Below are positions 39,984 through 56,890 of a DNA stretch of 64,000 bases, in pieces. The stretch is from Candidatus Moraniibacteriota bacterium (GTDB lineage: Bacteria; Patescibacteriota; Minisyncoccia; Moranbacterales; GCA-2747515): positions 16,898 to 80,897 of the forward strand of contig JALVQA010000009.1 of assembly GCA_027031495.1 (NCBI GenBank), written 5' to 3'. The first letter of the stretch is position 1, and each line of letters opens with the position of its first letter. A model generated the notes under the pieces. That model was not told the origin of the DNA, did no database searches, and saw only the letters and a list, made by a program, of their open reading frames with translations. Made by a program: the position numbers and the translations under genes.

Positions 39984-40946
39984 TTAATCCTTTTTTTGTT
40001 GTGGAAAAATGCTACTTAGATGCTCGTATATGTTAACAGCCCACTCTGTAATATCTTCCCTTCTCTTAAAATTGACATTATCAGGTATAAATATCTGAGG
40101 CGGGAACTTGACCCTCTTGACATCAAGAGGTTCCCTTCCAGTCCTTTCATAGAGATCATCTTCCCACTGTTCGATTGCATTTCTGTCAATATCTGCAAAC
40201 GCATGTGCAATGAATCTAATAGCCATATTAATATCACTCATCAAAGCATCATGTACTATGCTCCGCATTTTATCACGCATTCTAATCACACCTTGTTCGT
40301 CATTATCACTTCGGTAGATATTACCAGATCTTTCAAGTGCAGCGATCGCATCAATGTATCGCGGAATATCATTAGAAAATATTTGACGTAACATTTGCAG
40401 TGCTTCTTCTTTTTCTTTTGCTAATTGCTCCCATTCTTCCTCAGGGTGATCTCCTTCTTCTAATGTCGCACTTTTTATAAGACTTATAGCGTTTTTTACA
40501 TACTCTTCAGGAGTTTGTGGCATTTCTTTTTCATGATGGGACGCTGAGGTATCTCGCTTTTCGCTTTCTGTTTTAGTGGATACTGTGGCGATTTGAGGTT
40601 CTTCCCTACCAACATTTCTATCAGCGTTATATCTCTCTTCTTCTGTATCCTTATGTCGCATTTTAAACCTCATGTATCTCTCATACTCTTTACTACCCGG
40701 CGAAAATGGTGCATTGTGATAAAGTCTTAGCGTTCTTTGTATTCCTTTGGCTTCTTCGCGACGCAGTTTTCTTTCTTGTTCTTTATCTTCTTGAATTCTA
40801 TTGACATTTTCTTGCCCTTCTTGCTTGCTTTCTGCGGCATAACAATTAAGGCTTCCTCCAGCATGCTCATTGGAATAATTTCTACCGCCCTCTAAATACA
40901 TCATACTTTTAATGCTATGACTACATATTATTCTATACATGCTCAA
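39984..40946 (-). CDS. Hypothetical highly charged protein (320 aa)
   Basis: A long ORF in an AT-rich segment, rich in E/K/R. I recognise no family. Confidence 0.45.
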   Translation of the reverse strand: MSMYRIICSHSIKSMMYLEGGRNYSNEHAGGSLNCYAAESKQEGQENVNRIQEDKEQERKLRREEAKGIQRTLRLYHNAPFSPGSKEYERYMRFKMRHKDTEEERYNADRNVGREEPQIATVSTKTESEKRDTSASHHEKEMPQTPEEYVKNAISLIKSATLEEGDHPEEEWEQLAKEKEEALQMLRQIFSNDIPRYIDAIAALERSGNIYRSDNDEQGVIRMRDKMRSIVHDALMSDINMAIRFIAHAFADIDRNAIEQWEDDLYERTGREPLDVKRVKFPPQIFIPDNVNFKRREDITEWAVNIYEHLSSIFPQQKKD

Positions 40947-41090: not shown

Positions 41091-42155
41091 ATGCAAAACA
41101 TCCTTATCACCGGCGGTGCCGGCTACATTGGCTCACACACGGTTGTCGCGCTTCATGAAGCGGGCTTTCGTCCCGTTATCATTGACAATCTCAGCAATAG
41201 TGACGCACGCGTACTAGACGGGATCGCGCACATTACCGGCACTCGCCCGTCATTTTATCGTGGCGACTGTCGTGATATAGATCTCCTGCGTAAAATTTTC
41301 ACGCAAGAGGACATCGCCGGTGTCATTCACTTCGCCGCATACAAAGCCGTTGGTGAGAGCGTACAAGAACCGCTTAAATACTATGATAACAATATCAACG
41401 CGCTCTTACGCGTTCTTATAGCATCACAAGAGCACTCAGCCGGACAAGAGCATGTGTTTCCTTTTATCTTCTCTTCCAGCGCCACCGTCTACGGTGAGGC
41501 AGATACGATGCCACTGACGGAAGAAACGCCGCGCAAACCAGCAACCAATCCTTATGGCAACACCAAAGCAATTGCCGAGGATATTTTGCACGATGTCGTT
41601 CATGCACAGCGCAGAGCGAATGCATCATTATACGCAACGCCGCTTCATGCCATCGCACTGCGCTACTTTAATCCTATTGGCGCGCACCCGAGCGCCGCAA
41701 TCGGCGAGAATCCCCACGGACGACCGGAAAACCTCGTTCCCTATCTCGTCCAAGCCGCATCCGGCAGGCGCGAGCCGCTCACGATCTACGGCAACGACTA
41801 CCCCACACCAGATGGTACCGGCGTGCGCGACTACATCCACGTCGTGGACCTCGCAGAAGCACATGTAGCAGCGATGCAATACGCCTTTGCCCAAACCGAC
41901 GCGCCGCGTTTTGACATCTTCAACATTGGTACCGGTCGCGGCACGAGCGTCAAAGAACTCATCGCCACTTTTGAAGAGGTTACCGGTGTAAACGTTCCAC
42001 ACACAATTGGCGCGCGCCGTCCCGGAGATGTTGCCGTTTGCTACGCTGACACAACTAAAGCTGCAGATATCCTCGGATGGCGCGCTCGCTGTAGCATCGC
42101 TGACGCATTACGCGATGCCTGGGTGTGGGAACAACGCCAACACACCACATCCTAG
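41091..42155 (+). CDS. galE: UDP-glucose 4-epimerase
   Basis: Carries GGAGYIGSH as the NAD-binding motif and YxxxK (YGNTK). Length and overall architecture match GalE. Confidence 0.9.
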   Translation: MQNILITGGAGYIGSHTVVALHEAGFRPVIIDNLSNSDARVLDGIAHITGTRPSFYRGDCRDIDLLRKIFTQEDIAGVIHFAAYKAVGESVQEPLKYYDNNINALLRVLIASQEHSAGQEHVFPFIFSSSATVYGEADTMPLTEETPRKPATNPYGNTKAIAEDILHDVVHAQRRANASLYATPLHAIALRYFNPIGAHPSAAIGENPHGRPENLVPYLVQAASGRREPLTIYGNDYPTPDGTGVRDYIHVVDLAEAHVAAMQYAFAQTDAPRFDIFNIGTGRGTSVKELIATFEEVTGVNVPHTIGARRPGDVAVCYADTTKAADILGWRARCSIADALRDAWVWEQRQHTTS

Positions 42156-42163
42156 ATGCTCAC

Positions 42164-43479
42164 TTAGAGAAATATGGAATCATGCATGATAAAGACACAG
42201 TACACTATGATGCACAATACAACGTTATACAGAATTTGTATATGCAGGAGCTTTTGCGGAATATGTGCCAGCGCGATAATAGCCAATAGCCCCGGCAGGC
42301 TGTAGCGTGGCTCAATCAACCAGTGCAACGCCAATGATGCCACGGTGGCACCGGCCCACAACAGTGCCAGCGTTATATTACGCCAGTGCAACGCAAAGAG
42401 TGTTCCCAACGCGACAACCACAACGACATATGAAACGCCTCGGGCAAATGGTGCTGTTGCAATGGCAATAAGCACATCGTTATGCAAGAAACGCTCTGCT
42501 GTTACGAAATTGTAAGCGTGATCTATGACAAACGTCTTGTCATAGAAAAACCACCCGGCGAGAATGAGTAGCACCAACCCCACTTTTTGCATCCGAGACA
42601 GCCGTGAGATATTACGCATGATGTCCGCACTGATGCAACAACCAGTGGCAAAAACAGCACCGCAAAACATAGCAAAGAGAAATAGATATTCCCCCAGTGC
42701 AATGCACCTGCCGGATGGGCACTCTTGTCTCCCAGTGCCACGCCGCCATTAATGACAACAAATCCGGCAAACGCAGCCATCACCAGCCCATATGGAAAAT
42801 ACCACAAGAGAAACTGCCATGAACCCACTCTCTGTAGCAACGCTATCCAATGGCGACGCTGTATTGGAACACGCACGCGCCCATAAATATCTACAAGCAT
42901 GAATGCCACAACGGCAGCGGCAATGTATATCACCATATCCTGGCGCACGAGTAGTGTCAGTGCAAAGAGGCCGGCAGCAGCCCAATGACATCGCTTGTAT
43001 GCCAGTGCCACCGCCAAGAGAAAGAGTGAGACTGCCGGGATATCCGTATACACAATAAACGTGAAGAGAAACACTAGTGGCAGTGTGAGTACAGCAAACA
43101 TCTCTTCTTCTGCACGCCCTGTTGTCCTCACAAGCACATAGATTCCCAGCACAAGGAGTATGCCAAACACCGTTGCGGAAATATACCGAATATGGCGCTG
43201 CTTTGGATACTTCCCAAATGGATGCGCTATCACCTGTACACCACGTGCAACATAAGCTACGGCGTAGTGGTAGCCGGGAATATTGGTGAGGTTTTCAAAA
43301 TCCGCCTGTGACTGAATCTTGTCGCTATAGATGCGCTTGATCATCTTGCTGTGTACTTTTTCATCACGCCGAAAACCCTTTTCTGTCGCAAGCATGAAGA
43401 GTGCAATAGCCTGCAAGAGAATGAGTGCTATGATCGCTGTCCGATGACGTGACCAGAAGCTTTGTGTTGTCTGTGCCAT
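42164..43479 (-). pseudogene. GT-C-type (ArnT/PMT-like) polytopic membrane glycosyltransferase, apparently split by a frameshift into 318-aa and 168-aa ORFs
   Basis: Two same-strand ORFs (42523..43479 and 42164..42670) overlap in different frames. The tail of the first and the head of the second look out of frame. Combined length is about 480 aa, similar to the neighbouring 497-aa membrane protein. Confidence 0.45.
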
Positions 43480-43501
43480 TTGTGTGTTATTACGTCTTAC
43501 T

Positions 43502-44995
43502 TTACTGCAGCCATTGTGGCATCATCCACCCAAGCACGTTGTGCGCTACCGGTGTCGGCAGTGCACTCCAGCGCGCGGCAAGCTCTGCGTCCGAGAGCGC
43601 ATCCACTTGCGTCGGCGTCAGGTGCAACAACTGCGCAATCTTCGTTTTCTTGACCAACAGCGTCACGCGTCCTTGGCGAAACACCACGCGGTAATCGCCA
43701 CTCTCAGCAATACTGCGACGGTATGACATCTTGCGTGTCTCCAATGCCGGACGCTTTGTGCGCTTCTTGTCAGCATATTTGCTGCGCTTGAGGAGAACGT
43801 AATCCGTTAGTTGCCGATTATCCGGCAGGAAAAACTCCGCGCGCCGATTCACATGCGGTCCTACCGATGCGTCCGCTGTCACGCTCCCGCCATCCTTGAT
43901 CTGCCGCACTGCGGCATCCAGCGCATCCGTGTGCACACTCGTTTTGAAGTCCATGCGGTCCAGGAAGTGCGGCACGCCGGCAATCACCAGCCACAGTGCC
44001 ACAACCGCAAACAGCGCCTTCTGCCGCCACTTCCCTTGCCACCGCGCGGCAAGCTCAACGAAAATTATCACAAGCACCGGCGGGATAAGGACAAACACAT
44101 GACTGCCGCCGTTGATGCGCCCGTAGATGATAATCACCAGCGCAATCAGCAGCGACGGGATCAACAAAATGCTGTACCGGCTTGCAAGCGGCAGCACCCA
44201 CGCAAGCGGTGCGAGCCACTCCCCCACGCGCTTGAGTCGCTTGGCAAACTTTGGGACCTCGCCGTGAAGCGCATTGAGAAATTGCTGCTTGATATAGTCG
44301 GATGACCCAAACCCGACGGTAATGAAGAACTTTGCCGCCAGTTGCAGTGCCACACCCGCCACCATCGGCGGCAGCACCCACTTCCAGCTGCGCCGCTGCC
44401 ACAGTGCCAGCACACCCACGAGAAACAGCGTCGGCGAGACAAATTCACTCACAAGCGCCATCGCTAACACCAGCACTAAAAACCGCTTGTACCACCGCTC
44501 GCGGTATGCCATCAGTAACCACAAGAAAAACACCCCGCCGATTGCCACCACATGCATCGGACCGATCACCTGCTTGAGTGTCAGCGGATGTAGCAACCAC
44601 AGCGCGAGCGCTAGATATGCCGCAAGCCACCCAAGCCGCCGCGCCACATAGAAGTACAGCGTCAGCGCGCCGGCAGCAAAGAACGTCTGGATGATAAACA
44701 ATAGCGTCAGTGTGTGCGGCACGAGTGCATACAGCGGTAGGTATAGGAACTGTACGATGTTCAGGTGCTCGCGCAGATTGAACTCATTGCCAATCAAAAA
44801 ACTCTGATGAAACAGCCGCCCGGTAAACACCGTATTCCACAGCGCCTGCTCCGCCACCGCCGTGTCACCGGTACTGAACACATACCCCTCGTACTTCTTG
44901 TGCGTCGCGGCCATCCACACACCAAGCATACACACAACTAACACTACAGCAAGCACGTTGTGCCATGTTAATATGGATTTCTTTATCATAGCCAT
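43502..44995 (-). CDS. Polytopic membrane protein, GT-C/DUF2079-like (putative glycosyltransferase)
   Basis: Has about 10 N-terminal TM helices plus a C-terminal soluble domain. The segment is GC-rich relative to the neighbours. Confidence 0.5.
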   Translation of the reverse strand: MAMIKKSILTWHNVLAVVLVVCMLGVWMAATHKKYEGYVFSTGDTAVAEQALWNTVFTGRLFHQSFLIGNEFNLREHLNIVQFLYLPLYALVPHTLTLLFIIQTFFAAGALTLYFYVARRLGWLAAYLALALWLLHPLTLKQVIGPMHVVAIGGVFFLWLLMAYRERWYKRFLVLVLAMALVSEFVSPTLFLVGVLALWQRRSWKWVLPPMVAGVALQLAAKFFITVGFGSSDYIKQQFLNALHGEVPKFAKRLKRVGEWLAPLAWVLPLASRYSILLIPSLLIALVIIIYGRINGGSHVFVLIPPVLVIIFVELAARWQGKWRQKALFAVVALWLVIAGVPHFLDRMDFKTSVHTDALDAAVRQIKDGGSVTADASVGPHVNRRAEFFLPDNRQLTDYVLLKRSKYADKKRTKRPALETRKMSYRRSIAESGDYRVVFRQGRVTLLVKKTKIAQLLHLTPTQVDALSDAELAARWSALPTPVAHNVLGWMMPQWLQ

Positions 44996-45054
44996 TTTGT
45001 ATAGAATGTCGTTAATGTATTCCTACATTACAAGTAGTCAAAGTATTCTACTTT

Positions 45055-46134
45055 TCATTTATTTGCAATAATCTTCATGATCTTTTCAGCACTTTTACCG
45101 TCGCCAAATGGATTTGTCCATACGACATCCTTTTTTATGAGAGCACTGGCACTTGTTAAGATACGCTCATTGTCACTGTTACCAACAAGGACGCAGCCAC
45201 CAACATCAACAGCTTCTGGTCGCTCCGTATTCTCACGCAAAACGATACACTTCTTTTTTAGAATACATGATTCTTCTTGTAAACCGCCACTATCCGTTGC
45301 AATAAGAACTGCCATCTTCTGTAACATGAGCATGTCAAGATAACCAACAGGATCGATAGTTGTAAAATTTTGTGGCAGAGTGATATGAATTTTTTCTATC
45401 ATCTTTTTGGTTCGTGGATGCGCCGGGAAAACGACACGAACATTATGCATTTTTGCAATTTTCGATACAGCTCCTATAACTACCTTCAAATTGCTCTCAA
45501 CATCAACAGTCGCCGGTCTATGTGCTGTCATCAATATATAGTCATCACCACTCAAATTAAGTGTTTGTAAGATCTTTGATTTTTGTTCAGCAATCTGTAC
45601 ACCTTCCAGAACAGCGTCAACAATCGTATTACCAACAGTAAAGATCTTTGAGCCCTCAATCCCTTCTGTCATTAGGATATCAGCCTGTCTTTTTGTCGGC
45701 GCAAAAAGGTAATCTGATACATGATCGGTTACAATACGATTGATTTCTTCCGGCATAGAACGGTCATAGCTCCTTAGACCTGCTTCAACATGCCCAACTT
45801 TTATATCTATCTTTGACGCAACAAGCGCCGCTGCCATAACAGTATTTGTATCTCCTTGCACAAGCACGATATCAGGATTCTCTTTTTGTAGCACTTTTTC
45901 TATTTCTATCATCATACGTCCCGTCATTTCGCCATGACTTCCAGAACCAATGCCGAGATTATACTTAGGCTGCACTAGCTCAAGTTCATCAAAAAATATT
46001 TTGTCCATATTCTCCGAATAGTGCTGATTCGTATGTATAACGAAATACTCTTTGTTGTAATTCTCGCAAAATCTGATAATCGGTGCCATTTTAATAATTT
46101 CCGGCCGCGTTCCAAGAATAATTGCTGTTTTCAT
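45055..46134 (-). CDS. wecB: UDP-N-acetylglucosamine 2-epimerase (non-hydrolysing)
   Basis: Carries MKTAIILGTRPEIIKMAPI...QGDTNTV...HVEAGLRS, the typical WecB/MnaA motifs. I chose the start at the internal Met (codon 16 of the listed ORF). Confidence 0.9.
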   Translation of the reverse strand: MKTAIILGTRPEIIKMAPIIRFCENYNKEYFVIHTNQHYSENMDKIFFDELELVQPKYNLGIGSGSHGEMTGRMMIEIEKVLQKENPDIVLVQGDTNTVMAAALVASKIDIKVGHVEAGLRSYDRSMPEEINRIVTDHVSDYLFAPTKRQADILMTEGIEGSKIFTVGNTIVDAVLEGVQIAEQKSKILQTLNLSGDDYILMTAHRPATVDVESNLKVVIGAVSKIAKMHNVRVVFPAHPRTKKMIEKIHITLPQNFTTIDPVGYLDMLMLQKMAVLIATDSGGLQEESCILKKKCIVLRENTERPEAVDVGGCVLVGNSDNERILTSASALIKKDVVWTNPFGDGKSAEKIMKIIANK

Positions 46135-46144
46135 AAAAAAATGA

Positions 46145-48271
46145 TTATCTAATCTTCTTTGCCAAAAGACGCTCACCATCTATAACTTGCATTGCAATTT
46201 TGTCCAATACTCTTTTATTAGTTTTAACCCACTCTTTCTTATTTATTTTGTCTTCACTATAACTGTTTAAAAATCTCTTATAAGAAATATACTTATAACC
46301 TAATTCATCAAAATCACCAATTTGTACTGTATCAACAATTGGAATAATATCATGCTGCAAATATTCTATAAGTTTGGTTGGGCAAGCTGCGCGATTCACA
46401 ATAACATCTTCACGCAACACGAGTCCAAAATCAGCCTTGTTGTACCAATATTTTACATCGTCTGGTCCGGCAGATATAACTATACCTGGAAATGATTCCC
46501 GAAACTTCTTAGTATAAATGTCTTTTAATTCATCTGGCTGAGGAACAAGAAATACAAAATCATATCTTTTCTGTAGAGAATGCACAAAATCAAGCATCTT
46601 GTGTACTTGTTGCCACTTCTGTAATCCGCCGCAATAGATAATAACTTCTTTATCTTTTATTGATTTCATTGTTGGCTTTGCGCTCCCGCTAGAGGAAGTC
46701 GGAAAGATTGGCAAAAGTAATATTCTTGATTTTTTAAGGAAAGAATACTTACATCTTAAGTGCTTTGCCATCATATTTGTGACAACAATAACTACATTAG
46801 CTCTTCTAATAGCAAATTTTTCTATTTCATTAAAATCTTTGTAGCCAATTTTGTCACCATGAAAGAGAAACTCTTCTGGAACAACACCGTGAACATCAAG
46901 AATTCTTTTTCTAGCAGTTCTGAAAAGAATTCTATGCAATTTAGAATTTAAACGAAGAATACTATGCAAATAAATCCTCCCAGAAAGAATGTGCACAATA
47001 AGAAGAGCAAGAAATCCTATCGGATTCTTCTTATTAATTGATATTTCAAAGGTGTTAGCATTAATTTTGTTAATCATTCTAAAATCATTGCGAGATATCT
47101 TCCCGGAATAGTATCTTACATAAAATTTTAGGTATACTGACAATATTTTATCGATAGCATTAACTCTCTGAAAGTAGCCATCTTTTAGATCATCTTCGGT
47201 AGGATAATGTACTAGAAATAATATTTTTCGCGTTAATACGATATATGATATCCTTTTGTATCGTATATGTATAAAACGCCATATTCTATTCAAAAGATTA
47301 TAGAAACGTAACGATGCTTTTATAAAAAGGCTATCGCATTTCTGAGTTATATTTGTTAAGTGATCGATTGTACTCACTATTATCTCGTAGTAGTTGTCAA
47401 AAACATTCTTCGCATACTTATCATCATTATGCGACAGTAGAAAATGCATATCTTGTTTGAAGCCAAGATATGGTAAAAGACTCCTGTCTTTCCAAGTAAT
47501 ATTGTGCTTATATTCAAATATAGTCTTATTCTTCTGCAAATGTCGCATTAGTTTGCGCACTGGAATTTGCGAAAAAGATGCGGTACCCCAATGGTATAAG
47601 AAAACGTCTCTTGCTATGTGCATTTTGAATCCTGCATTTAAAATGCGCAAACAATAATCATCGTCTTCGAACGCACCGCGCCCGAAAATCTCATCAAGAT
47701 ATCCCACCTTCAAAAATAGCTCACGCGTCCCGATAAAACAAAAAAAACCTAGAAAATTCGTTTCTTTTACAAAATTCTCAAATAAGATATACCTTTTTTG
47801 AGCAAATTTATTAATTTTTTCAAAGTTATTATCGCAAGAATCCAATTGTAAATCTGTAGCAATTGTTTGCTCATTTCCACAAGCATTTGTTACGGGACCA
47901 ATCGCATCAGAATCATGAGCAATTAGACGGTCTAGCCAGTAATCAGTAAGAATAACATCACTATTCAATAGGCAAATATGTGTAATATCATCTTCTTTAA
48001 GAAATTTTTTGATACCAATGTTGTTACCACCTGGAAAACCAGTATTATGATTCATTCGAATTAACTCATCGTCAAAATCGACGCGCTCTTTCTTTAATAA
48101 ATCAAACGCACGTTTAATTTTTTTAAATTCTGCCAATCTTGATGCATTGTCAATAACACAAATACTAAAACGTGTATCATTCTTTGCGCGCACCAAAGAA
48201 TCTAAACACTGCTCAACAACATCAGCTCTATTATAAGTGAGTATGACAATGCCAACTCTTATCTCATTCAT
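46145..48271 (-). CDS. Multidomain glycosyltransferase (N-terminal GT2 + C-terminal GT1/GT4-like)
   Basis: The GT2 motifs are VGIVILTYNR...VIDNAS, a DxD and FEDDDYCLR. The C-terminal part (about 230 aa) is Rossmann-like. The segment is very AT-rich. Confidence 0.8.
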   Translation of the reverse strand: MNEIRVGIVILTYNRADVVEQCLDSLVRAKNDTRFSICVIDNASRLAEFKKIKRAFDLLKKERVDFDDELIRMNHNTGFPGGNNIGIKKFLKEDDITHICLLNSDVILTDYWLDRLIAHDSDAIGPVTNACGNEQTIATDLQLDSCDNNFEKINKFAQKRYILFENFVKETNFLGFFCFIGTRELFLKVGYLDEIFGRGAFEDDDYCLRILNAGFKMHIARDVFLYHWGTASFSQIPVRKLMRHLQKNKTIFEYKHNITWKDRSLLPYLGFKQDMHFLLSHNDDKYAKNVFDNYYEIIVSTIDHLTNITQKCDSLFIKASLRFYNLLNRIWRFIHIRYKRISYIVLTRKILFLVHYPTEDDLKDGYFQRVNAIDKILSVYLKFYVRYYSGKISRNDFRMINKINANTFEISINKKNPIGFLALLIVHILSGRIYLHSILRLNSKLHRILFRTARKRILDVHGVVPEEFLFHGDKIGYKDFNEIEKFAIRRANVVIVVTNMMAKHLRCKYSFLKKSRILLLPIFPTSSSGSAKPTMKSIKDKEVIIYCGGLQKWQQVHKMLDFVHSLQKRYDFVFLVPQPDELKDIYTKKFRESFPGIVISAGPDDVKYWYNKADFGLVLREDVIVNRAACPTKLIEYLQHDIIPIVDTVQIGDFDELGYKYISYKRFLNSYSEDKINKKEWVKTNKRVLDKIAMQVIDGERLLAKKIR

Positions 48272-48282
48272 AGTGTATTTTT

Positions 48283-50622
48283 TTATAAAAGCTCTTTATA
48301 TAATTTATCGTACTGTTTTGACATATTTTCTACAGTATATTTCTCCTTGATTTTTTTGCGTCCTTGCAATGCTTTTTTGCGCCATGTTGTATGATTACGA
48401 TACATCGCAACCATAGCATTTTTAATGCTATCGATATTCTTAATATTTTTATCGTTAGTATAAAAATTATGCACATCTTTTGGAGATATATCTGAGACAT
48501 CATTATACGGATTATCTACTATAATGCCAATGTCAGAATCATTAATTACATCTCTTGCAGATCCAATATCCGACAAAATCATTGGCAACTGCGCATACAT
48601 TGCCTCTAAAACAGCAATGCTACAACCTTCAATAAGTGATGGCATAATAAAACAGTCTGACATCTGTAATATGCTCATAACCTTTTTCTTCGGCATATAT
48701 TTCATAATGCGAATATTTTTGTCGAGATGCCGTTTTTTAATCTCACTTGCTATATAATCATAGCATGATTTGTCCAAAATATTGCCCATAAAAATCATTT
48801 TGAACTTTGGATATTTTTCAATGAGCCGATCCATTGCAACGACCATGCTAATATGGAATTTATGCCAGTTAAATGAAGCAATATTAATAAAGATAAAATC
48901 ATCTTCAGAAAATCCATATACATCACGGCATCCTTTTTCAAAATTTTTCACTAAATCTACATTGATACCATTTAATATAACAGAAATGTTATCTTTTTCG
49001 ATATGAAATTTTTCTGTGAAGTATTCCTTTACCTGACTTGAAACAGCAACAAACCGATCAATGCCCGCATAAAACCTCTTTCTAGATTTAATAAATTCTT
49101 TGTCAGCCCAGATATAGTTGTTATGTATCGTGTAGACACTTTTAATACCCAATTTTCTATATATATCGAAACCAAAATCACTGTAGTGAAAATGTATAAT
49201 ATCGGGTCGGTATTTATTTAGCACTTTCTTTAAAAGAAACCTGTTTCCATGTAGATTAATTACGTTAATTCCGCTTTTTTTTGCAACTTTTTCCATGTAC
49301 CCATTCTTACCAAATGATGCAATTACACAAACATTGTAGGTTTCTTTAAGTGAACGAGCCAGAGCAAAGACAACCTCTTCTAATCCACCTTTATCAAAAG
49401 AATGCACTTGCAAAAAAATTAATTTCGCTTTTCTTTCATTAAAATGTAAACGTTGTTGATTTATTGACAAAAGAGCGTGAAAGAATAAAATACCATTTTT
49501 TATGTTGGTTAAAGGCACATACTTCATTAAACAAAAATTCTTGGTTTTTTCTTTGCAATGCCTTACAAAGATATTCGGTTTCTTTATAACTCTCGTAATA
49601 TTTTTTTTATAACGAACGTACACATTTCTCAATTGCCAAAATTTTGATGATTTCATATATCGAATTTCAAAATCTTTCTGTGCATTCACTTTTTCTTGCT
49701 CAGCTATCTGTTTTGAGAGTTGTGCATTCACTTTTTCTTGCTCAGCTATCTGTTTTGAGAGTTGTGCATTCACTTTTTCTTGCTCAGCTATCTGTTTTGA
49801 GAGCTTATTTATTTGTTCCAAAAGAATGTAGAATTTTTCATCTCTTTTTGTTCCTTTGTTTAAAAAGGCATCACTTGCAAGATTAACAACGTCTTCATAA
49901 CTAAAATCATCACTACCAGTCAAAAAAACCACCTTATTATGACGTAATTTATCACTGATAAAATTAGCTATTTCTCGTTGCTTTGCGCTATCCGTATAAT
50001 CAATATTTAAAAAATCACAAACTCTTCGTAATTCTTTATGCGCATCAACAAAATAGTTATCAAAGAATGTAAAAATCCTATCTTTGCCTTTCGTGTATTT
50101 TAAAATTGATCTAATATACGTTAACCACAACATTATACCATCGTCCAGGTTAATGCCATCACGCTTGTGTAATGACGCCGCTACATTTGCTGGATGCCTA
50201 ACAGGAATCACATATTTCATATGCGGAATAACTTTTTGCCAAAAAGGAAGCGTCAACGACGTTCTCGGCTCCTTAAATCCCCAAATTTCATGTGCACCAT
50301 TCATTTTTTTAACAACTTCTCGTGCTCTTTCATACAACTGATTTAATCTCTTATCGTCTTCCCATTTATCAAGAAGTCTTGGCGGCATGTCCCACGTACC
50401 GCCAAAGGTTTCGAGTATCTTTTCATTAATATGAAGAATTTCTATATTCTCCCAATGTCCCTTTATATTTTCACTATAACTCTTTGTCATGATGTTTTTC
50501 TCATCACCAAGAGATAGGCCACAAATATTCAAAAGGCGTGTTATCATTGACGTACCACTTCTGTGCATTCCCAGTATACAGACAACTGTATTCTCTTTCC
50601 TGTTCATAATTTTGTTCAGCAT
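48283..50622 (-). CDS. Sulfotransferase-glycosyltransferase (GT4) fusion protein with tandem-repeat coiled-coil linker
   Basis: The N-terminal domain has a PAPS 5'-PSB loop (GMHRSGTSM) and a 3'-PB motif (VRHPANVAAS). The linker is LSKQIAEQEKVNAQ x3. The C-terminal GT4 has the EX7E-type motif (PSLIEGCSIAVLEAMYAQLPMI). I chose the start at an internal Met to avoid overlap with sat. Confidence 0.8.
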   Translation of the reverse strand: MLNKIMNRKENTVVCILGMHRSGTSMITRLLNICGLSLGDEKNIMTKSYSENIKGHWENIEILHINEKILETFGGTWDMPPRLLDKWEDDKRLNQLYERAREVVKKMNGAHEIWGFKEPRTSLTLPFWQKVIPHMKYVIPVRHPANVAASLHKRDGINLDDGIMLWLTYIRSILKYTKGKDRIFTFFDNYFVDAHKELRRVCDFLNIDYTDSAKQREIANFISDKLRHNKVVFLTGSDDFSYEDVVNLASDAFLNKGTKRDEKFYILLEQINKLSKQIAEQEKVNAQLSKQIAEQEKVNAQLSKQIAEQEKVNAQKDFEIRYMKSSKFWQLRNVYVRYKKNITRVIKKPNIFVRHCKEKTKNFCLMKYVPLTNIKNGILFFHALLSINQQRLHFNERKAKLIFLQVHSFDKGGLEEVVFALARSLKETYNVCVIASFGKNGYMEKVAKKSGINVINLHGNRFLLKKVLNKYRPDIIHFHYSDFGFDIYRKLGIKSVYTIHNNYIWADKEFIKSRKRFYAGIDRFVAVSSQVKEYFTEKFHIEKDNISVILNGINVDLVKNFEKGCRDVYGFSEDDFIFINIASFNWHKFHISMVVAMDRLIEKYPKFKMIFMGNILDKSCYDYIASEIKKRHLDKNIRIMKYMPKKKVMSILQMSDCFIMPSLIEGCSIAVLEAMYAQLPMILSDIGSARDVINDSDIGIIVDNPYNDVSDISPKDVHNFYTNDKNIKNIDSIKNAMVAMYRNHTTWRKKALQGRKKIKEKYTVENMSKQYDKLYKELL
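49681..49806. repeat. Three perfect 42-nt tandem repeats inside the sulfotransferase-GT4 gene
   Basis: tgcattcactttttcttgctcagctatctgttttgagagttg occurs three times, identical at the nucleotide level. It encodes a 14-aa heptad-like repeat. Confidence 0.9.
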
Positions 50623-50626
50623 TTTA

Positions 50627-51694
50627 TCAATCAACAAATATGCTTTTTCTACTCTCCAAATACGCCACAACCTCTTTCCGCATAAATTTATCAGGAATTT
50701 CTTCTTTTTCGATCAGTCTGCGACGCAACTCTGTACCGGATAAAAAGACTTTGTCATCATCTGTGTGCGGACACGTACCATCAGGCGTCATGTTCTCACA
50801 CTTTTTACAATAACACACATTGTTATATTTGAATATTTTAATACAAAGTTCATCCTCACGAAACCGCTTGAAAATATTTTGTGCATCATACGTACCATAA
50901 TAATTGCCGACACCGGCATGGTCGCGTCCGATAATCATGTGCGTGCACCCAAAATTTTTCCGTACTTGCGCATGGAAAACAGCCTCACGCGGACCGGCAT
51001 AGCGCATATAGGTGTGAAATGTTGACAATTCAACCGTATCTTTTTTGTAGTAGCGCTCAATGAGAATGTTATAAGCGCCGATGATGTATTCATCCTTGAT
51101 ATCACCTTCCTTTTTTGGCCCGATAACCGGTTGAATAAGGAGACCATCTACCTGTGCTAGAGCACGTTTTTGCAAGAATTCATGTGAGCGGTGTGGTGGG
51201 TTGCGTGTTTGAAACGCAACAATATGCGTCCAAGCGTGTTTCTTAAAGATCTCCTTCATTTCTGCCGGTGTTTTGTAGTATGGATACGTATTTTTAAATT
51301 CGCGCCCGACAACACGATCTACGTTGCCGCCGACAAAGTATTCCTTCAATCCATATAACCGCGCAACGCCGGGATGTTTTTTGTCGGTTGTGCCATAAAG
51401 TGCCTGCGCCATGCGATCACGATCAATTTTATAGATACTTGGTTTGGAAATATAGAACTGTTTACCTTCTCTGTTTTCAATAATAAAATCGTTGTCACCA
51501 ATCTCTTCTTTTTGCTCACGTGTTATGTCAAGAATAATTGGCATCGCCCATATGCGTCCATCTGTCAGACGGAAATGTGTGGCAATGCTCTCAAAATCGT
51601 CCTTGCCCGTAAAACCTTTTAGTGGCGCGTAAACACCATCAGCAATATTGCACGCCTCTTGCATGACAACATCATCAACAAGTATTTTCTTCAT
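50627..51694 (-). CDS. sat: Sulfate adenylyltransferase (ATP sulfurylase, homo-oligomeric Sat type)
   Basis: Carries QTRNPPHRSHE and GRDHAG motifs. Confidence 0.9.
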   Translation of the reverse strand: MKKILVDDVVMQEACNIADGVYAPLKGFTGKDDFESIATHFRLTDGRIWAMPIILDITREQKEEIGDNDFIIENREGKQFYISKPSIYKIDRDRMAQALYGTTDKKHPGVARLYGLKEYFVGGNVDRVVGREFKNTYPYYKTPAEMKEIFKKHAWTHIVAFQTRNPPHRSHEFLQKRALAQVDGLLIQPVIGPKKEGDIKDEYIIGAYNILIERYYKKDTVELSTFHTYMRYAGPREAVFHAQVRKNFGCTHMIIGRDHAGVGNYYGTYDAQNIFKRFREDELCIKIFKYNNVCYCKKCENMTPDGTCPHTDDDKVFLSGTELRRRLIEKEEIPDKFMRKEVVAYLESRKSIFVD

Positions 51695-51701
51695 ATCTTT
51701 A

Positions 51702-52490
51702 TCATTCTCTAGAGCAGAGTGTCATATCACCGTTTGTTACAATATAGCCGTTGCGTAATTTTGTGTTGGCACAATTATAAAAAATTCTGCGCCCTTTTTT
51801 GTCACAAATATTCCCGCCGGCTTCACGCACAATAACATCGCCGGCGCAAATATCCCATATACCGCTTTTATCACTGGAGTTAATGTAGAGCTCCGCCTCA
51901 CCTGCTGCAATTTTGCACATTTTAAGACCTGCTGATCCCATGGGAATAGGCCGCATACTATACAGGCGAGCGATGTCTTGCTCCCATGTGCCCAGATGAT
52001 TTCTGCTTGTTAGAATTCTGCCACCCTTTAGTGGTTTTTTGCTGACAAAAATGCGTTCTTTCACAGAACCTCTTTGCAAGAAAGCGCCCGTATCACGGAT
52101 GGCATAGTACAGAACATCCATTGCCGGTGCATACACAACGCCGGCAACAGCACACCGGCTACTATCAATCAAACCAATCATAATGCTGAAGTCACCGGTT
52201 TTTTGAATAAAATCCTTTGTGCCATCAATAGGATCAATAATCCAGATGTATTCACTTTCAGATGCCACAGAAGTATCACCACCTTCTTCACTGAGAACCG
52301 GAAAGCTATAACGTGATAATTTGTCTGTCACAAGACGATGCACTGCCATGTCCGCTGCTGTAACAGGAGATTTGTCGCGTTTCTGCTCAATGGCATACGA
52401 CGCATTATAAAACGTCAGTGCAACGTCACCGGCTGCACGCGCTATGTCAATAATGTCGTCAATTTCAATGGGAATGCTTTTTAGCGTCAT
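51702..52490 (-). CDS. cysQ: 3'(2'),5'-bisphosphate nucleotidase (CysQ/IMPase family)
   Basis: Carries EEGG and WIIDPIDGTKDFI as IMPase metal-binding motifs. It lies between sat and cysC. I chose the start at the internal Met (MTLKSIPIE...), since the listed ORF overlaps cysC. Confidence 0.75.
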   Translation of the reverse strand: MTLKSIPIEIDDIIDIARAAGDVALTFYNASYAIEQKRDKSPVTAADMAVHRLVTDKLSRYSFPVLSEEGGDTSVASESEYIWIIDPIDGTKDFIQKTGDFSIMIGLIDSSRCAVAGVVYAPAMDVLYYAIRDTGAFLQRGSVKERIFVSKKPLKGGRILTSRNHLGTWEQDIARLYSMRPIPMGSAGLKMCKIAAGEAELYINSSDKSGIWDICAGDVIVREAGGNICDKKGRRIFYNCANTKLRNGYIVTNGDMTLCSRE

Positions 52491-53010
52491 TGTATTTCTT
52501 TTCAATATATGCAATGATTTTTTGTACACTTTCATCAATGCTCTCCTTCTCCGTATCAACCACAATCTCCGGCTTTGTCGGCTCTTCAAAAGGATCTTGT
52601 ACGCCTGTAAAATCTTTAATCTCACCTCTCTTTGCTTTCGCATACATCCCCTTTACGTCTCGCTCCATACACTTCTTTACACTTGCCCTTACGTACACTT
52701 CCACAAAATTTTCACCAATGAGCGCACGCGCACGTTCGCGCATATGACGATACGGTGATACAAACGCCATGGAAACATTAATGCCATTGTTTGCAAGCAT
52801 TTGTGCTACATAAGAAAGGCGTTCAATATTCGCCTCTCTATCAGCTTTGCTGAACCCAAGATCTTTGCTGATTGTTGTGCGTACAACATCACCATCAAGA
52901 CGTTGAAACGGCAAATCCTTTTGACGAAAATACTCCTCAATCCCCAGCGAAAGAGTCGTTTTACCACTACATGGCAGTCCCGTAAGCCACAAAACGATAC
53001 CATTTTTCAT
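52465..53010 (-). CDS. cysC: Adenylylsulfate (APS) kinase
   Basis: Carries GLPCSGKTT as the P-loop. Length and motifs match CysC. Confidence 0.9.
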   Translation of the reverse strand: MKNGIVLWLTGLPCSGKTTLSLGIEEYFRQKDLPFQRLDGDVVRTTISKDLGFSKADREANIERLSYVAQMLANNGINVSMAFVSPYRHMRERARALIGENFVEVYVRASVKKCMERDVKGMYAKAKRGEIKDFTGVQDPFEEPTKPEIVVDTEKESIDESVQKIIAYIEKKYNDAKKHSH

Positions 53011-53016
53011 AACACT

Positions 53017-54315
53017 TTAGCGTTTTTTTGACCACTTATGTTCAATGCGCATTATACCACCACCAGCACCTTCTTTATGCACGATTTTGACAATCTTTTC
53101 GTTTATTTCCTTACACGAAATAGTATCAATAATAACAATATCATTATCACCCTTTCTCTCAAAAACAACAGCGCGTACATAGATTTCACCCATATTAAAC
53201 ACATTGTCTTTGAAGAAAATTTTGATTGTATTTTTTCCCGTGCGCCACTTGCAATCAAAATGGTCATTATGCGTATTATTGCCGCAAAGAAAAGCATCGT
53301 TACTGTTATCAAAAATTTGCACCGCAAGAAAAAGGTTTTTTCTTCGTCGCCTCACATCAACCGTCGTTTCAATACTAAACGGTTCACCATGTGCAATTTC
53401 CATCAATTCATTGCCACGTGCATCAAACAACTGTATATCTTCTATGACAGCATCTTTTTCTTTTCTTCCCTTCTCCTTGTTCTTTTTTATTTCTTTTTCC
53501 CGCTCTTCTTCTTGTCTCTTTATGTGTTCTCTCTCTTCCAATTCTTTCCTCTGACGAGCATGCATGTTTTTCGCAATATACGCATCACACACGGTATCAA
53601 CATCACCAACTTCAAGAACTGTGCCGTTGTGTAACAACAATGCGCGGTTACAGTACTCACGCACAATACCTATGTCATGCGTTACAAGAATAACTGTTTT
53701 TTCTTGGTTCTTGTATCTCTTAAAAGTATCAAGGCACTTCTTTTGAAAGTTACTGTCCCCTACCGCGAGGACTTCGTCCATCAGGAGAATGTCGCGGTTG
53801 GCGTGGATGGAGACGGCGAAGGCGAGGCGGACTTGCATGCCGCTGGAGTAGTTTTTGAGCTTCTGATCTATGAAACGTTCCAGCTCGGCGAAGCGCACAA
53901 TGTCGTTGAATTTCTTGTCAATCTCCTTGCGCGAGAGCCCGAGTACCGTCGCGTTCAGGTACACATTGTCCCGCCCGGAGAGCTCCGGATTGAAGCCAAT
54001 CCCCAGTTCCAGAAACGGCGAGATCCGCCCATTGACCGTGACGCGTCCGCTGTCGGGGCGGTAAATCCCGGCGAGGATTTTCAGGAGTGTACTCTTACCC
54101 GAGCCGTTGCGCCCGATGATGCCAAAAAACTCTCCCTTTTTAACGCTAAAACTTACTTTATCCAGCGCCTTGAATTCTTCGTACGTACGGTCGCCCTTGA
54201 AGGCACTCACAAACGCCCCGCGCAGGCTACTGACCTTCTCATGCGGGATGCGAAACATCTTGGAAACATTATGCACGTCAATTGCATTCTTTAATTGTGT
54301 CTTTTTTGTACGCAT
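53017..54315 (-). CDS. ABC transporter ATP-binding protein for polysaccharide export (Wzt/TagH-like) with C-terminal extension
   Basis: Walker A is GRNGSGKST, the signature is LSGGMQVRLAF and Walker B is ILLMDEVLAVGD. An extra C-terminal domain of about 180 aa is as found in Wzt. Confidence 0.85.
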   Translation of the reverse strand: MRTKKTQLKNAIDVHNVSKMFRIPHEKVSSLRGAFVSAFKGDRTYEEFKALDKVSFSVKKGEFFGIIGRNGSGKSTLLKILAGIYRPDSGRVTVNGRISPFLELGIGFNPELSGRDNVYLNATVLGLSRKEIDKKFNDIVRFAELERFIDQKLKNYSSGMQVRLAFAVSIHANRDILLMDEVLAVGDSNFQKKCLDTFKRYKNQEKTVILVTHDIGIVREYCNRALLLHNGTVLEVGDVDTVCDAYIAKNMHARQRKELEEREHIKRQEEEREKEIKKNKEKGRKEKDAVIEDIQLFDARGNELMEIAHGEPFSIETTVDVRRRRKNLFLAVQIFDNSNDAFLCGNNTHNDHFDCKWRTGKNTIKIFFKDNVFNMGEIYVRAVVFERKGDNDIVIIDTISCKEINEKIVKIVHKEGAGGGIMRIEHKWSKKR

Positions 54316-54337
54316 CTTTTCGATTATAATACAGTTC

Positions 54338-55120
54338 TTATACCTTCTCTGCAATAGACGGAATCAGGCGACGATATACCCAGATGCTAAATGCAAACGC
54401 GCCGGTAAGAATTGCAACGAACAGCAGCGTCTGGTGCGCATCCGGCAAGTGGTCTTGTGTGAGCGCCATCTTGGTAAAATGCCCGATAAACGCCAGTGGA
54501 TTGAGTAAAATCCACTTATGATACTGCGCCGGCAACAGTGAGAGCGGATAGATGATCGGTGAGGCATAAAAGAGAATCTGTACTACCACATCCCAAATCA
54601 ATGCAATATCACGAAACAAAACCTGTAGTGGTGCTGCCATGAGTGAGAATGACACGATCAGGATAAACAGTGCCAGTGAGAATAAAATGAACAATCCAAT
54701 CGCCTGTAACGACGGCACGAGGTGATACAGCGCAAAAAACAAAATAATCACCGCAATATTCGCGATGTAGATTATCGCGCTATTGAGTGTTGCCGCAAAG
54801 ATAATTGCCCAGCGCGGCACATAGATTTTTGTGACGAGTTGCGACTTGTTTAGGAGTGCATTAAGACCCGCATTTGTTCCCTCCGCAAAAAAATTAAACA
54901 TCATGATCCCGACAAGTAGCTCCAACGCGTAGTAATTTGTCCCATCATTACGCATATTAAAAATAGATGAGAACACAAAGTACAGCACCGTAAATGTCAA
55001 CAGCGGTTTTAGGAGTGCCCAAACATACCCAAGAATAGACCCTTGGTAGCGTAATTTAAAATCCATTTTTGCCAGCATCCAGATGAGTTCTCTGTAGCTC
55101 TCGTGCTGCAACTCTTTCAT
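54338..55120 (-). CDS. ABC-2 type polysaccharide export permease (Wzm/TagG-like)
   Basis: It has six TM helices and an ABC-2 signature region. The gene overlaps the Wzt start by a few nt. Confidence 0.85.
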   Translation of the reverse strand: MKELQHESYRELIWMLAKMDFKLRYQGSILGYVWALLKPLLTFTVLYFVFSSIFNMRNDGTNYYALELLVGIMMFNFFAEGTNAGLNALLNKSQLVTKIYVPRWAIIFAATLNSAIIYIANIAVIILFFALYHLVPSLQAIGLFILFSLALFILIVSFSLMAAPLQVLFRDIALIWDVVVQILFYASPIIYPLSLLPAQYHKWILLNPLAFIGHFTKMALTQDHLPDAHQTLLFVAILTGAFAFSIWVYRRLIPSIAEKV

Positions 55121-55145
55121 AAAAAATGATCAGATCAGTTATTGC

Positions 55146-55307
55146 CTACTTTGTTATGCGTCGATTGCGCCATGCGCGCACAGCAACTTTGCGCTGTCGC
55201 AACCACAGCATCCACTCCGGATGTTTGCGCACAATGTAGTTACAGATGTTTGTGATACCTAAAATGAGCAACGTCAAATAATAAACAATACGTGCTGGTG
55301 AAAGCAT
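55146..55307 (-). CDS. Possible small membrane protein (about 53 aa) at the head of the glycan operon
   Basis: An unlisted short ORF (MLSPARIVYYLTLLILGITNICNYIV...) has one TM helix plus a basic tail. It lies 25 nt upstream of wzm. Confidence 0.2.
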   Translation of the reverse strand: MLSPARIVYYLTLLILGITNICNYIVRKHPEWMLWLRQRKVAVRAWRNRRITK

Positions 55308-55412: not shown

Positions 55413-56546
55413 CTACGCATCCAAAACAGCAATGCCAGGCAAAGTCTTACCCGCCATAAACTCCAAGAGCGCGCCACCGCCTGTGGAAACAAAATCTATA
55501 GCATCCACTGCATCATAGTACTCCAATGCTTCTAGAGATTCGCCGCCACCAACAACAGTAAAGGCATCTGTTTGTGTAAGTGCCTTCACAATACGCTCCG
55601 TACCGCGTGCGTATTCGTCTTTTTCATACCATCCCATAGGGCCGTTCCATATAACGGTACGCGCACGCATAATGTGTTCAACAAACACATCGCATGTTGC
55701 CGGCCCAATGTCAAAGCGATCACCTACAAAATCCGTCGGCAATACAACGCGCTCTGAAAAAGAAATGTTTTCATCAATAGCTTCATTGGCAATTTTACCA
55801 CCAACGAGGATTGTGTCATACAGCGGCTCAAGTGCGCGAATAAACGGCAGTTTTGTTGCAATTTTCGCACCACCAATTACTGCAACCGCTGGGTGCTCCG
55901 GTGCTGTACGCACACGTGAAAGCGTGGCAACTTCCTGCGCAAGTTGCTCGCCGGCATACGACGGTAACACACACGCAAGCTCAACCACTGACGCATGCAT
56001 GCGATGCGACACGCTAAAAGCATCATTAACGTAAATGTCAAAATTGCGCGCAATGTCACGCGCAAAAGCCATGCGCTCTGCAGTATCATCTGCTGTTTCT
56101 CCCCTATAAAAACGCACATTTTCCAGAAGAACTAGTGATCCAGCTGCACTGCCATCGAGAATATCACGCACATGTTCACCTGTGCACGCATCAGCAAAAA
56201 CAACAGAGCGTCCTAAAATACGTGCAATATCATCTGTTAGTTGTGCCATGGAAAGCTCTCTCGTGTAATATGCGCCGGCATGTGCACTCTCGGATATCGC
56301 CTCATCTCCCTCTTCCTTACCACTTTGCGCACGCTGTTGTTCACACGCCTTACGTGGACGACCAAGATGCCCAAGAAGTGCAACATGCGCACCAGCATCA
56401 CACAAAAAATCAACTGTTCTCTTGAGTGATGCAATGCGAAACTTTTGCTTTGTATCACCATCTTTAATCGGCACATTGAGCGGTGCGCGTACAACAACGC
56501 GCTTGCCAGCAAGATCAGCTGACGCAAGAGAAGAGAGAAGACGCAT
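55413..56546 (-). CDS. pgk: Phosphoglycerate kinase
   Basis: Carries GKRVVVRAPLNVP...RIAS at the N-terminus. The C-terminal nucleotide-binding region reads FVSTGGGALLEFMAGKTLPG. Confidence 0.9.
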   Translation of the reverse strand: MRLLSSLASADLAGKRVVVRAPLNVPIKDGDTKQKFRIASLKRTVDFLCDAGAHVALLGHLGRPRKACEQQRAQSGKEEGDEAISESAHAGAYYTRELSMAQLTDDIARILGRSVVFADACTGEHVRDILDGSAAGSLVLLENVRFYRGETADDTAERMAFARDIARNFDIYVNDAFSVSHRMHASVVELACVLPSYAGEQLAQEVATLSRVRTAPEHPAVAVIGGAKIATKLPFIRALEPLYDTILVGGKIANEAIDENISFSERVVLPTDFVGDRFDIGPATCDVFVEHIMRARTVIWNGPMGWYEKDEYARGTERIVKALTQTDAFTVVGGGESLEALEYYDAVDAIDFVSTGGGALLEFMAGKTLPGIAVLDA

Positions 56547-56554
56547 ATTTTTTC

Positions 56555-56890
56555 CTATTTAAGAATATGATATGAGAACCAGTTAACAACTGTAAGTAAC
56601 AGTGATACCGCAAGAGCGCTCCAGAAACTTGCAATTGCAAATCCCTCAACAAAACTTGCAAGCAAAAGAAGCATTGCTGCATTGATAACAAAGAGGAATA
56701 ACCCAAGCGTCAAAATCGTAATCGGCAATGTCAAAAAAACAAGAATGGGACGCACAGTAATATTAAGTAAGCCAAGCAAAATTGCAACAACAAGCGCAAT
56801 ATAAAATGATGTTACCGTAACACCGGGAATAAGCTTTGTTGCCACAAGTAATGTTAGCGCAACAATAATAAGACGCAAAAGAAAAAACAT
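56555..56890 (-). CDS. DUF360/YvlD-like four-TM membrane protein (holin superfamily IV-like)
   Basis: It is 111 aa with four hydrophobic helices, a pattern typical of the family. Confidence 0.45.
   Translation of the reverse strand: MFFLLRLIIVALTLLVATKLIPGVTVTSFYIALVVAILLGLLNITVRPILVFLTLPITILTLGLFLFVINAAMLLLLASFVEGFAIASFWSALAVSLLLTVVNWFSYHILK

Follow-up and report, generated by a model that had tools for sequence, protein, structure and literature searches.

Layout of the gene cluster and its PAPS genes

A stretch of 64,000 nucleotides from a Candidatus Moraniibacteriota bacterium (assembly GCA_027031495.1, contig JALVQA010000009.1, positions 16,898 to 80,897 of the forward strand; the whole stretch is called the window below) carries a gene cluster of about 13 kb that is predicted to make and export a sulfated glycan. 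According to the open reading frame (ORF) listing, minus-strand genes run from 55307 down to 42164 without interruption and all in the same direction. They encode, in this order, a small hydrophobic protein, the ABC-2 permease Wzm, the ABC ATPase Wzt, adenosine 5′-phosphosulfate (APS) kinase (CysC), a CysQ-type phosphatase, ATP sulfurylase (Sat), a sulfotransferase fused to a family 4 glycosyltransferase (GT4), a two-module glycosyltransferase (GT), the epimerase WecB and two membrane proteins of the DUF2079 and ALG10 families. A preliminary description made from the letters alone had given this order and the co-directional run; both were borne out, and Pfam assigned every domain named there. 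Domain calls were made with Pfam and NCBIfam on the window ORFs, and negative results refer to ORFs of at least 120 amino acids (aa) and to the 10 kb past the right end of the window. From the small ORF down to the ALG10-like gene, all neighbouring genes overlap or are separated by 6–59 nt, and the single larger intergenic gap (about 105 nt) separates pgk from the 53-aa ORF at the cluster head. Given this tight spacing, co-transcription of the cluster is plausible.

The interval from wzt to the sulfotransferase gene is filled by three genes for the synthesis and recycling of 3′-phosphoadenosine 5′-phosphosulfate (PAPS), with overlaps or spacings of 6–19 nt. CysC (52465–53010, minus strand), which converts APS to PAPS, matched Pfam APS_kinase with 186.6 bits and TIGR00455 with 203.4 bits (cutoff 138.7). 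Sat (50627–51694, minus strand), a homo-oligomeric-type ATP sulfurylase that converts sulfate to APS, matched PUA_2 and ATP-sulfurylase (288.3 bits) and NF003166 (426.5 bits, cutoff 387); its closest relatives in species-representative genomes are those of Candidate Phyla Radiation (CPR) bacteria, at 48–54% identity. Between them lies a CysQ-type 3′(2′),5′-bisphosphate nucleotidase (51702–52490, minus strand; Inositol_P 164.3 bits), which converts 3′-phosphoadenosine 5′-phosphate (PAP) to AMP. Its ORF is open from 51702 to 52643 with a probable start at 52490, and its best NCBIfam match, TIGR01331, scored 202.9 bits, slightly under the equivalog cutoff of 228.8. The complete PAPS set of the preliminary description is thus upheld, with two members above their family cutoffs and CysQ just below.

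A search of the window ORFs of 120 aa or more, and of the 10 kb that follow its right end, gave no cysH (PAPS/APS reductase) and no gene for a sulfite reductase or a cysteine synthase. This agrees with the earlier remark that the window holds no such reductase, and a cysH gene just outside, which that remark had raised as a caveat, did not appear in the right flank. An alternative in which sat, cysC and cysQ feed a PAPS reductase elsewhere in the genome for ordinary sulfur assimilation, and lie in a glycan cluster only incidentally, is highly unlikely. The sequence examined amounts to 64 kb and a flank of about 10 kb, and Sat/CysC pairs of Bacillota, Bacteroidota and Thaumarchaeota may well be assimilatory; here, however, the three genes are tightly packed with wzt on one side and the sulfotransferase gene on the other, a PAPS-using sulfotransferase is the directly adjacent gene, the adjacency of Wzt to CysC (with CysQ or Sat) recurs in loci L004 and L023 described below, and assimilatory sulfate reduction is not generally known from CPR genomes. 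The sequence probably encodes a pathway for the dedicated sulfation of an exported glycan, with its own source of PAPS, rather than for sulfur assimilation. The preference of the preliminary description for dedicated sulfation stands on three grounds: the PAPS-binding motifs are kept, the PAPS genes are wedged between wzt and the GT genes, and no reductase was found.

The sulfotransferase fusion protein, its partners and its relatives

The gene next to sat encodes a fusion protein (48283–50607, minus strand) in which a sulfotransferase domain is followed by a long helix, a basic amphipathic segment and a GT4 module (AlphaFold model meeb1ce0c8134). With its true start at 50607, the protein has 774 aa and is identical to database protein P0001. 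In the longer ORF (48283–50670), Pfam placed Sulfotransfer_1/3 at aa 30–296, with both Sulfotransfer_1 and Sulfotransfer_3 above their cutoffs, and Glyco_transf_4/Glycos_transf_1 at aa 428–723.

The sulfotransferase domain (aa 1–225; 49933–50607, minus strand) was modelled with a predicted local distance difference test (pLDDT) score above 90 and carries PAPS-binding motifs. The 5′-phosphosulfate-binding (5′-PSB) residues H15-R16-S17-G18-S20, the residues K112/P114/R115 and the 3′-phosphate-binding (3′-PB) residues R137...S145 are invariant in 16 homologues. Across the aligned homologues, the 5′-phosphosulfate loop G-M-H-R-S-G-T-S (13–20), K112/P114/R115 and R137...S145 are invariant or nearly so, and the loop and R137...S145 align with the corresponding motifs of TPST1; G50 and E53 are invariant as well, and the window protein has H51. 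When the sulfotransferase profile was compared with the PDB, PAPS sulfotransferases were the only matches, namely TPST1 (6e-6), CurM ST (1.6e-4) and cytosolic SULTs. Judged by these findings, the domain looks catalytically competent.

The predicted long helix (aa 252–339; 49591–49854, minus strand) is a putative coiled-coil spacer or ruler, given in the AlphaFold model as helices 252–319 and 322–339 with pLDDT 75–84. It has a 14-residue periodicity, and within it sits a perfect 42-bp tandem repeat (49679–49803, minus strand; 3.0 copies, 100% matches and a score of 250 in Tandem Repeats Finder). Each 42-bp unit encodes LSKQIAEQEKVNAQ, that is, two heptads, and the peptide occurs three times. 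Logan contig L002 terminates within this repeat. The preliminary description had made no mention of the helical spacer. The helix is followed by an amphipathic, strongly basic segment that begins with S-S-K-F-W and, from about residue 392, by the GT4 module of GT-B type (aa 392–774; 48286–49434, minus strand), which scored 91.8 bits with Glycos_transf_1 and 79.3 bits with Glyco_transf_4. A Foldseek search with the whole fusion model returned GT4 enzymes only.

The neighbouring 708-aa protein (46145–48271, minus strand; AlphaFold mean pLDDT 89) consists of a GT-A/GT2 module (aa 1–260), a helical linker (266–346) and a GT-B module (349–707). It had been described as GT2 plus GT1. The GT2 part was confirmed by Pfam (Glycos_transf_2), and Foldseek gave K4CP and ppGalNAc-T as GT-A matches; the GT1 half stayed below threshold in Pfam (Glyco_transf_4, 20.3 bits, cutoff 28.5), yet AlphaFold models it with confidence as a GT-B fold, with BshA, GlgM and sucrose-phosphate synthase as Foldseek matches. 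Together with the GT4 of the fusion protein, the locus therefore encodes three GT modules. GT2, GT-B and GT4 are fused in proteins of about 1,140–1,230 aa from Vibrio, Photobacterium and Brucella, and P0017 is a single chain with homologues of both 708-aa halves and of the GT4 (39%, 32% and 35% identity; E 2e-62, 5e-54 and 7e-51), which argues that the two GT proteins of the window are functionally linked. The pair of GT genes with WecB downstream is conserved in GCA_040961595.1.

Relatives of the sulfotransferase are numerous: the subfamily comprises 13,268 representatives of 50%-identity clusters at E ≤ 1e-30, and at least 570 matches were found in Joint Genome Institute (JGI) metagenome contigs. 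The sulfotransferase–helix unit occurs alone in P0008 and with a second sulfotransferase domain in P0006, and it is also fused to GT2, GT4, GT92-like, WbsX, RgpF or glycerophosphotransferase modules. Homologues differ in the spacer that joins the sulfotransferase domain to a conserved S-x-S/K-W/F motif, its length being 94–266 aa. Tandem peptide repeats occur in the spacer of 6 of 39 homologues, four of these with a period of 14 or 28 residues at the same place as in the window protein, a pattern that points to lengthening and shortening of the spacer as repeats are gained or lost. In P0002, a methyltransferase and a helical region replace the sulfotransferase while the overall length is that of the window fusion; its GT4 starts at residue 393 (392 in the window) and is 40% identical (E 1e-100). 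By analogy, the layout of the fusion protein would be that of the known glycan chain terminators WbdD, WbbB and Klebsiella pneumoniae O7 ORF6.

The exporter is encoded at the head of the cluster. Wzm (54338–55120, minus strand), the ABC-2 permease, matched ABC2_membrane with 57.5 bits and is nearest to the Wzm/RfbD and KpsM models of NCBIfam. Wzt (53017–54354, minus strand; likely start ATG 54315) combines an ABC ATPase (ABC_tran, 84 bits) with a C-terminal Wzt_C carbohydrate-binding module at aa 297–412 (35.1 bits, gathering cutoff 30.4), and its best PDB matches are O-antigen Wzt structures of Aquifex aeolicus (E 3e-64). An antisense ORF of 205 aa (53677–54294, plus strand) displaces the N-terminal half of Wzt in the public gene calls of identical ENA/Logan contigs; those calls leave a 215-aa "Wzt_C" fragment, and the 445-aa Wzt ORF of the window is intact.

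Gene neighbourhoods were surveyed at 80 metagenome loci with a member of the sulfotransferase family, an adjacent Wzt being counted at 37% identity or more. Such a Wzt was present at 13 of the 80 loci; its C-terminus carried Wzt_C above the Pfam cutoff in eight cases and a methyltransferase domain in one, had no extension in three and was cut by the contig end in one. A Wzt that adjoins a member of this family thus usually bears Wzt_C. CysC, Sat or CysQ lay nearby at 4 of the 80 loci, so the embedded PAPS set is the less common feature. Among related public loci, metagenome contig L023 has the order Wzm...Wzt(Wzt_C)-CysC-CysQ...sulfotransferase-helix-GT, and Moranbacteria GW2011_GWC2_40_12 (L004) has Wzm...Wzt(Wzt_C)-CysC-Sat. 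The idea that clusters of this kind are rare was not supported, given the size of the subfamily, its frequent place beside wzm/wzt in metagenomes and these public loci; the locus is more ordinary than had been supposed. Literature searches for a sulfated-glycan locus in CPR/Patescibacteria found no relevant paper.

From 8165 to 14806 of L004, the genes encode Wzt(Wzt_C), CysC, Sat, DUF4915 and a methyltransferase-GT2-GT2 protein, in that order; no recognisable sulfotransferase lies within 10 kb, and DUF4915 is a candidate PAPS user there. In L034 (2439–4022), a 528-aa Wzt homologue with a methyltransferase domain in the position of Wzt_C adjoins a member of the sulfotransferase family.

A proposed sulfate cap and its alternatives

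In the polymerase-terminator model of Wzm/Wzt-dependent glycans, a cap-forming enzyme is held at the distal end of a coiled coil, the polymerase GT modules lie near the membrane on the same or a partner protein, and the C-terminal module of Wzt reads the cap (PMC11231755, PMC3482155, PMC9445017). The window locus has a counterpart of each of these elements, with a putative coiled coil and the sulfotransferase in the position of the terminator, and on this ground the following sequence of events is proposed. Sat and CysC would convert sulfate to PAPS, and CysQ would clear the by-product PAP. WecB, and probably GalE too, would supply UDP-N-acetylmannosamine (UDP-ManNAc) and a 4-epimerised UDP-hexose or UDP-N-acetylhexosamine (UDP-HexNAc). 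On the cytoplasmic side of the membrane, the three GT modules (GT-A and GT-B of the 708-aa protein, GT4 of the 774-aa protein) would lengthen the glycan on a presumed lipid carrier. The sulfotransferase, held away from the GT4 by a helix of about 70–90 residues, would use PAPS to sulfate the growing chain, most likely at the non-reducing end, and sulfation would halt extension once the chain reaches the sulfotransferase. Wzt_C would then recognise the modified end, and Wzm/Wzt would export the glycan. Outside the membrane, the DUF2079 and ALG10-like (frameshifted) proteins, or a Wzy_C protein encoded farther away, may decorate the glycan or transfer it to a final acceptor.

By analogy with the known systems, a glycan that depends on the ABC transporter and bears a terminal sulfate cap has, in our judgement, an even chance of being the product. 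A wider proposal is offered tentatively: sulfate may be a further class of chain-terminating cap, made by a very widespread sulfotransferase–coiled-coil family and read by Wzt_C; the PAPS pathway of this CPR bacterium may serve the cap solely; and gain or loss of the 42-bp repeat could reset the ruler and with it the length of the glycan.

The closest parallels are K. pneumoniae O7 ORF6 and Raoultella O12 WbbB, which have an N-terminal cap enzyme, a helical spacer and C-terminal GT module(s), the layout proposed for the window fusion; as in the window, a partner protein supplies another GT, and the locus includes wzm/wzt, the Wzt bearing a binding module (PMC11231755). Their cap module is a methyltransferase-kinase or a 3-deoxy-D-manno-oct-2-ulosonic acid (Kdo) transferase, whereas that of the window would be a PAPS sulfotransferase; the window spacer is shorter and has a perfect tandem repeat, and the locus brings its own donor genes for Sat, CysC and CysQ. 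The bacterium of the window belongs to the CPR, whose members are not known to have an outer membrane, so the window product cannot be an O-antigen of lipopolysaccharide. WbdD of Escherichia coli O9a and K. pneumoniae O3 follows the logic proposed here, with a small non-sugar cap and an enzyme held off the membrane on a coiled coil (PMC3482155, PMC9445017). Export in the window system would likewise be gated by the C-terminal module of Wzt, and the basic amphipathic segment after the window helix resembles the membrane-binding region of WbdD. However, WbdD has no GT module and recruits the separate polymerase WbdA, whereas the window fusion carries GT4; the chemistry is phosphate plus methyl rather than sulfate, and the catalytic domains have no sequence similarity.

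Sulfated products are also known from rhizobial Nod factors (NodH, NodPQ, NodIJ), for which, as proposed for the window, a dedicated PAPS set, a carbohydrate sulfotransferase and an ABC-2 exporter are encoded together and serve a secreted sulfated glycoconjugate instead of assimilation (PMC3557214). NodPQ, in contrast, is a CysDN-type sulfurylase without CysQ, the substrate is a lipo-chitooligosaccharide and not a polymer, and there is neither a coiled-coil fusion nor Wzt_C. The O-antigen cluster of Aeromonas salmonicida has a strikingly similar order (Wzt, a sulfotransferase-domain gene, the multi-module coiled-coil GT WbbB, WecB, GT2 and an ArnT-like GT-C-type protein), but its sulfotransferase-domain protein is a separate ORF of 216 aa, the cluster has no PAPS genes, and the paper reports that the published O-antigen structure showed no sulfate (PMC4483657). 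Wall teichoic acid export by TagGH is alike in that TagH models are the best NCBIfam matches of Wzt (210 and 190 bits) and the host probably has a single membrane, like the bacteria with TagGH. A wall teichoic acid pathway was rejected: the TagH scores of 210 and 190 bits fall far below the cutoffs of 538 and 320, no Glyphos_transf domain (glycerol- or ribitol-phosphate transferase), TagO or TagA occurs in the window, and Wzt has Wzt_C. No paper was found that describes sulfate as a chain terminator; the 2019 census of terminator chemistries in Glycobiology by Mann, Kimber and Whitfield may already list candidates of the sulfotransferase type.

Several observations weigh against the proposed cap and ruler. 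The coiled coil is read from a helix in a monomer AlphaFold model and from the 14-residue repeat, and half of its candidate core positions are Gln or Asn. The helix would span about 10–13 nm if fully extended, and that of WbdD is longer. Wzt has no binding module at 3 of the 13 Wzt-linked metagenome loci or in L021, so the sulfotransferase family is not strictly tied to cap-reading transporters, and most loci of the family showed no Wzt at all, many of the contigs being short. An initiating phosphoglycosyl transferase of WecA/WbaP type was not recognised among the window ORFs of at least 120 aa, and neither was a ligase; the initiator gene of known systems is often outside the locus, so that its absence here is weak evidence against membership. 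The window has no recognisable sulfate importer, and a frameshift interrupts the ALG10-like gene. Promoter and terminator scans of the window gave about the numbers expected by chance (44 against 39.4 expected, 20 against 14.5 expected) and thus carry no information on operon structure. With a GC content of 32% in the two GT genes against 44% for the whole window, the cluster is a mosaic, the parts of which may lack co-adaptation.

The sulfotransferase might instead decorate internal residues in the same pathway, which would give a polysulfated polymer; the helix would then only oligomerise or scaffold, and length and export would be independent of sulfate. Characterised bacterial sulfated polysaccharides carry sulfate within their repeat units, as in the Cobetia marina capsule (PMC11766843), and two sulfotransferase domains in P0006 and a Wzt without a binding module in the related loci L021, L059, L093 and L102 point the same way. 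A full set for PAPS synthesis and recycling also looks generous for one sulfate per chain, although a small genome with no other visible use of PAPS needs the whole pathway even for a cap. Internal decoration is nonetheless rather unlikely in view of the predicted model, in which the sulfotransferase sits at the far end of the long helix, away from the GT modules; of the homologous GT4 that bears, in place of the sulfotransferase, a methyltransferase, an activity known to form caps; and of the presence of Wzt_C in the Wzt of the window and at 8 of the 13 linked metagenome loci. That the sulfotransferase acts on a lipid, a protein tyrosine or a small molecule, with the GT4 fusion reflecting another product such as a sulfated glycolipid, is improbable. 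Acceptor specificity is unreadable from sequence, and the closest solved profile relatives are protein-tyrosine sulfotransferases and the polyketide sulfotransferase CurM ST, but these PDB matches are weak (E ~1e-5) and cover mainly the PAPS-binding core, and the domain family is repeatedly fused to glycosyltransferase modules in glycan loci.

The cluster could, finally, be a decaying or chimeric remnant, possibly a mis-assembly across a low-GC segment, with no product; this we regard as very improbable. The frameshift in the ALG10-like gene would fit a remnant, as would the base composition and the breaks of several independent assemblies within the cluster region. GC is 32% in the two GT genes, down from about 44%, and reaches 57% in the DUF2079 gene (0.568, against 0.438 window-wide), with WecB at 39% and the PAPS genes and wzm/wzt at 42–45%; GC at third codon positions is 28–29% in the two GT genes (46145–50607) and 70% in the DUF2079 gene. 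All other ORFs are intact, however, with conserved catalytic motifs, and the GT gene pair with WecB is conserved elsewhere. Independent contigs cross both edges of the low-GC segment: L001 extends from sat to the codon for aa 517 of the fusion protein, and L019 from the 708-aa gene into wecB. Central GT genes of low GC are typical of surface-glycan loci.

The system of the window extends the known polymerase-terminator scheme; its component types are all known, and similar loci were already public but unremarked. If sulfate caps are real, the scheme would gain a chemistry beyond methyl, phosphomethyl and Kdo caps, and a protein family of more than 13,000 sequence clusters would have a testable function. 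The perfect 42-bp repeat in the putative ruler would be a simple experimental handle on the control of chain length. CPR bacteria (Patescibacteria) are thought to live attached to host cells and have very few biosynthetic genes. Here, a reduced CPR genome spends about 13 kb, including a private PAPS pathway, on what would be an anionic surface glycan, and this outlay suggests that the glycan probably matters for attachment, protection, or evasion of phages or hosts.

Other cluster genes and the genomic setting

WecB (45055–46179, minus strand) is a non-hydrolysing UDP-N-acetylglucosamine 2-epimerase that makes UDP-ManNAc (Epimerase_2, 373.7 bits; TIGR00236, 405.9 bits, cutoff 210). The adjacency of galE given in the preliminary description was confirmed: GalE, a UDP-glucose 4-epimerase (41091–42155, plus strand; TIGR01179, 392.5 bits, cutoff 262.3), is convergent with the cluster, with 8 nt between the stops. 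The two membrane proteins at the end of the cluster had both been called GT-C-type. One is a polytopic DUF2079 protein (43502–44995, minus strand; Pfam 63.2 bits), which we take to be GT-C-type by its Pfam clan; no published work on DUF2079 was found. The other is a GT-C membrane glycosyltransferase of the ALG10/DIE2 family (42164–43479, minus strand; Pfam DIE2_ALG10). Both genes stood, with the correction that the last one is split by a frameshift near 42630–42650 into two overlapping frames (42523–43479 and 42164–42670), with no homopolymer at the junction. The upstream frame alone matched positions 29–272 of the profile with 76 bits and the joined frames 29–382 of 391 with 89.2 bits, and the same split is present in ENA scaffold_31. 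At the cluster head, the possible small membrane protein exists as a hydrophobic and basic ORF of 53 aa (55146–55307, minus strand), read from the sequence and identical in contigs L001 and L002; it has no Pfam or NCBIfam match.

A Glycos_transf_4 protein (22880–24019) was considered as a WecA-type initiator and rejected: it is MraY (TIGR00445 180 bits; WecA model 29.9 bits) and the sole polyprenyl-phosphate N-acetylhexosamine 1-phosphate transferase (PNPT) in the window. About 9 kb upstream of the cluster, between murG and nusB, lie a gene for a 460-aa protein of the Wzy_C (O-antigen-ligase) family and a gene for a 406-aa GT4 protein. Both are seen in L024 (6926–9593), just past the right end of the window, and the 3′ part of the GT4 gene is window 63151–63954. 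This Wzy_C protein may act as the ligase of the glycan after export. Large or membrane ORFs without a Pfam match are found at 5322–8675, 27598–28680, 36858–38138 and 39984–40946, and the third of these has a weak glutaredoxin-like NCBIfam match. They could include a sulfate importer or an initiating transferase; for the unannotated membrane ORFs near the cluster, NCBIfam was uninformative. Scans of the window for tRNA genes and Rfam families gave no matches.

Elsewhere the window carries the housekeeping genes dprA, topA, relA/spoT, mreBC, PBP2, mraY, secDF, secY, smc, pgk and nusB. The named homologues of its SecY (62–68% identity) are all from Candidatus Moranbacteria/Moraniibacteriota or the "Patescibacteria group". 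In relatives with SecY 88–90% identical, a Wzm 85–95% identical follows pgk, where the contigs stop; a relative with SecY 80% identical has different genes at the cluster site. As the content of the site differs among close relatives, the locus behaves as a variable surface-glycan region. Phosphoglycerate kinase (PGK), the product of pgk (55413–56546), is just 68% identical in L026, L029 and L030, despite the 88–90% of SecY and the 85–95% of Wzm, and the window PGK is 21–27 residues longer than theirs. Between secY and pgk lies a gene of the Phage_holin_4_2 family (56555–56890), the position of which is kept in all relatives examined.

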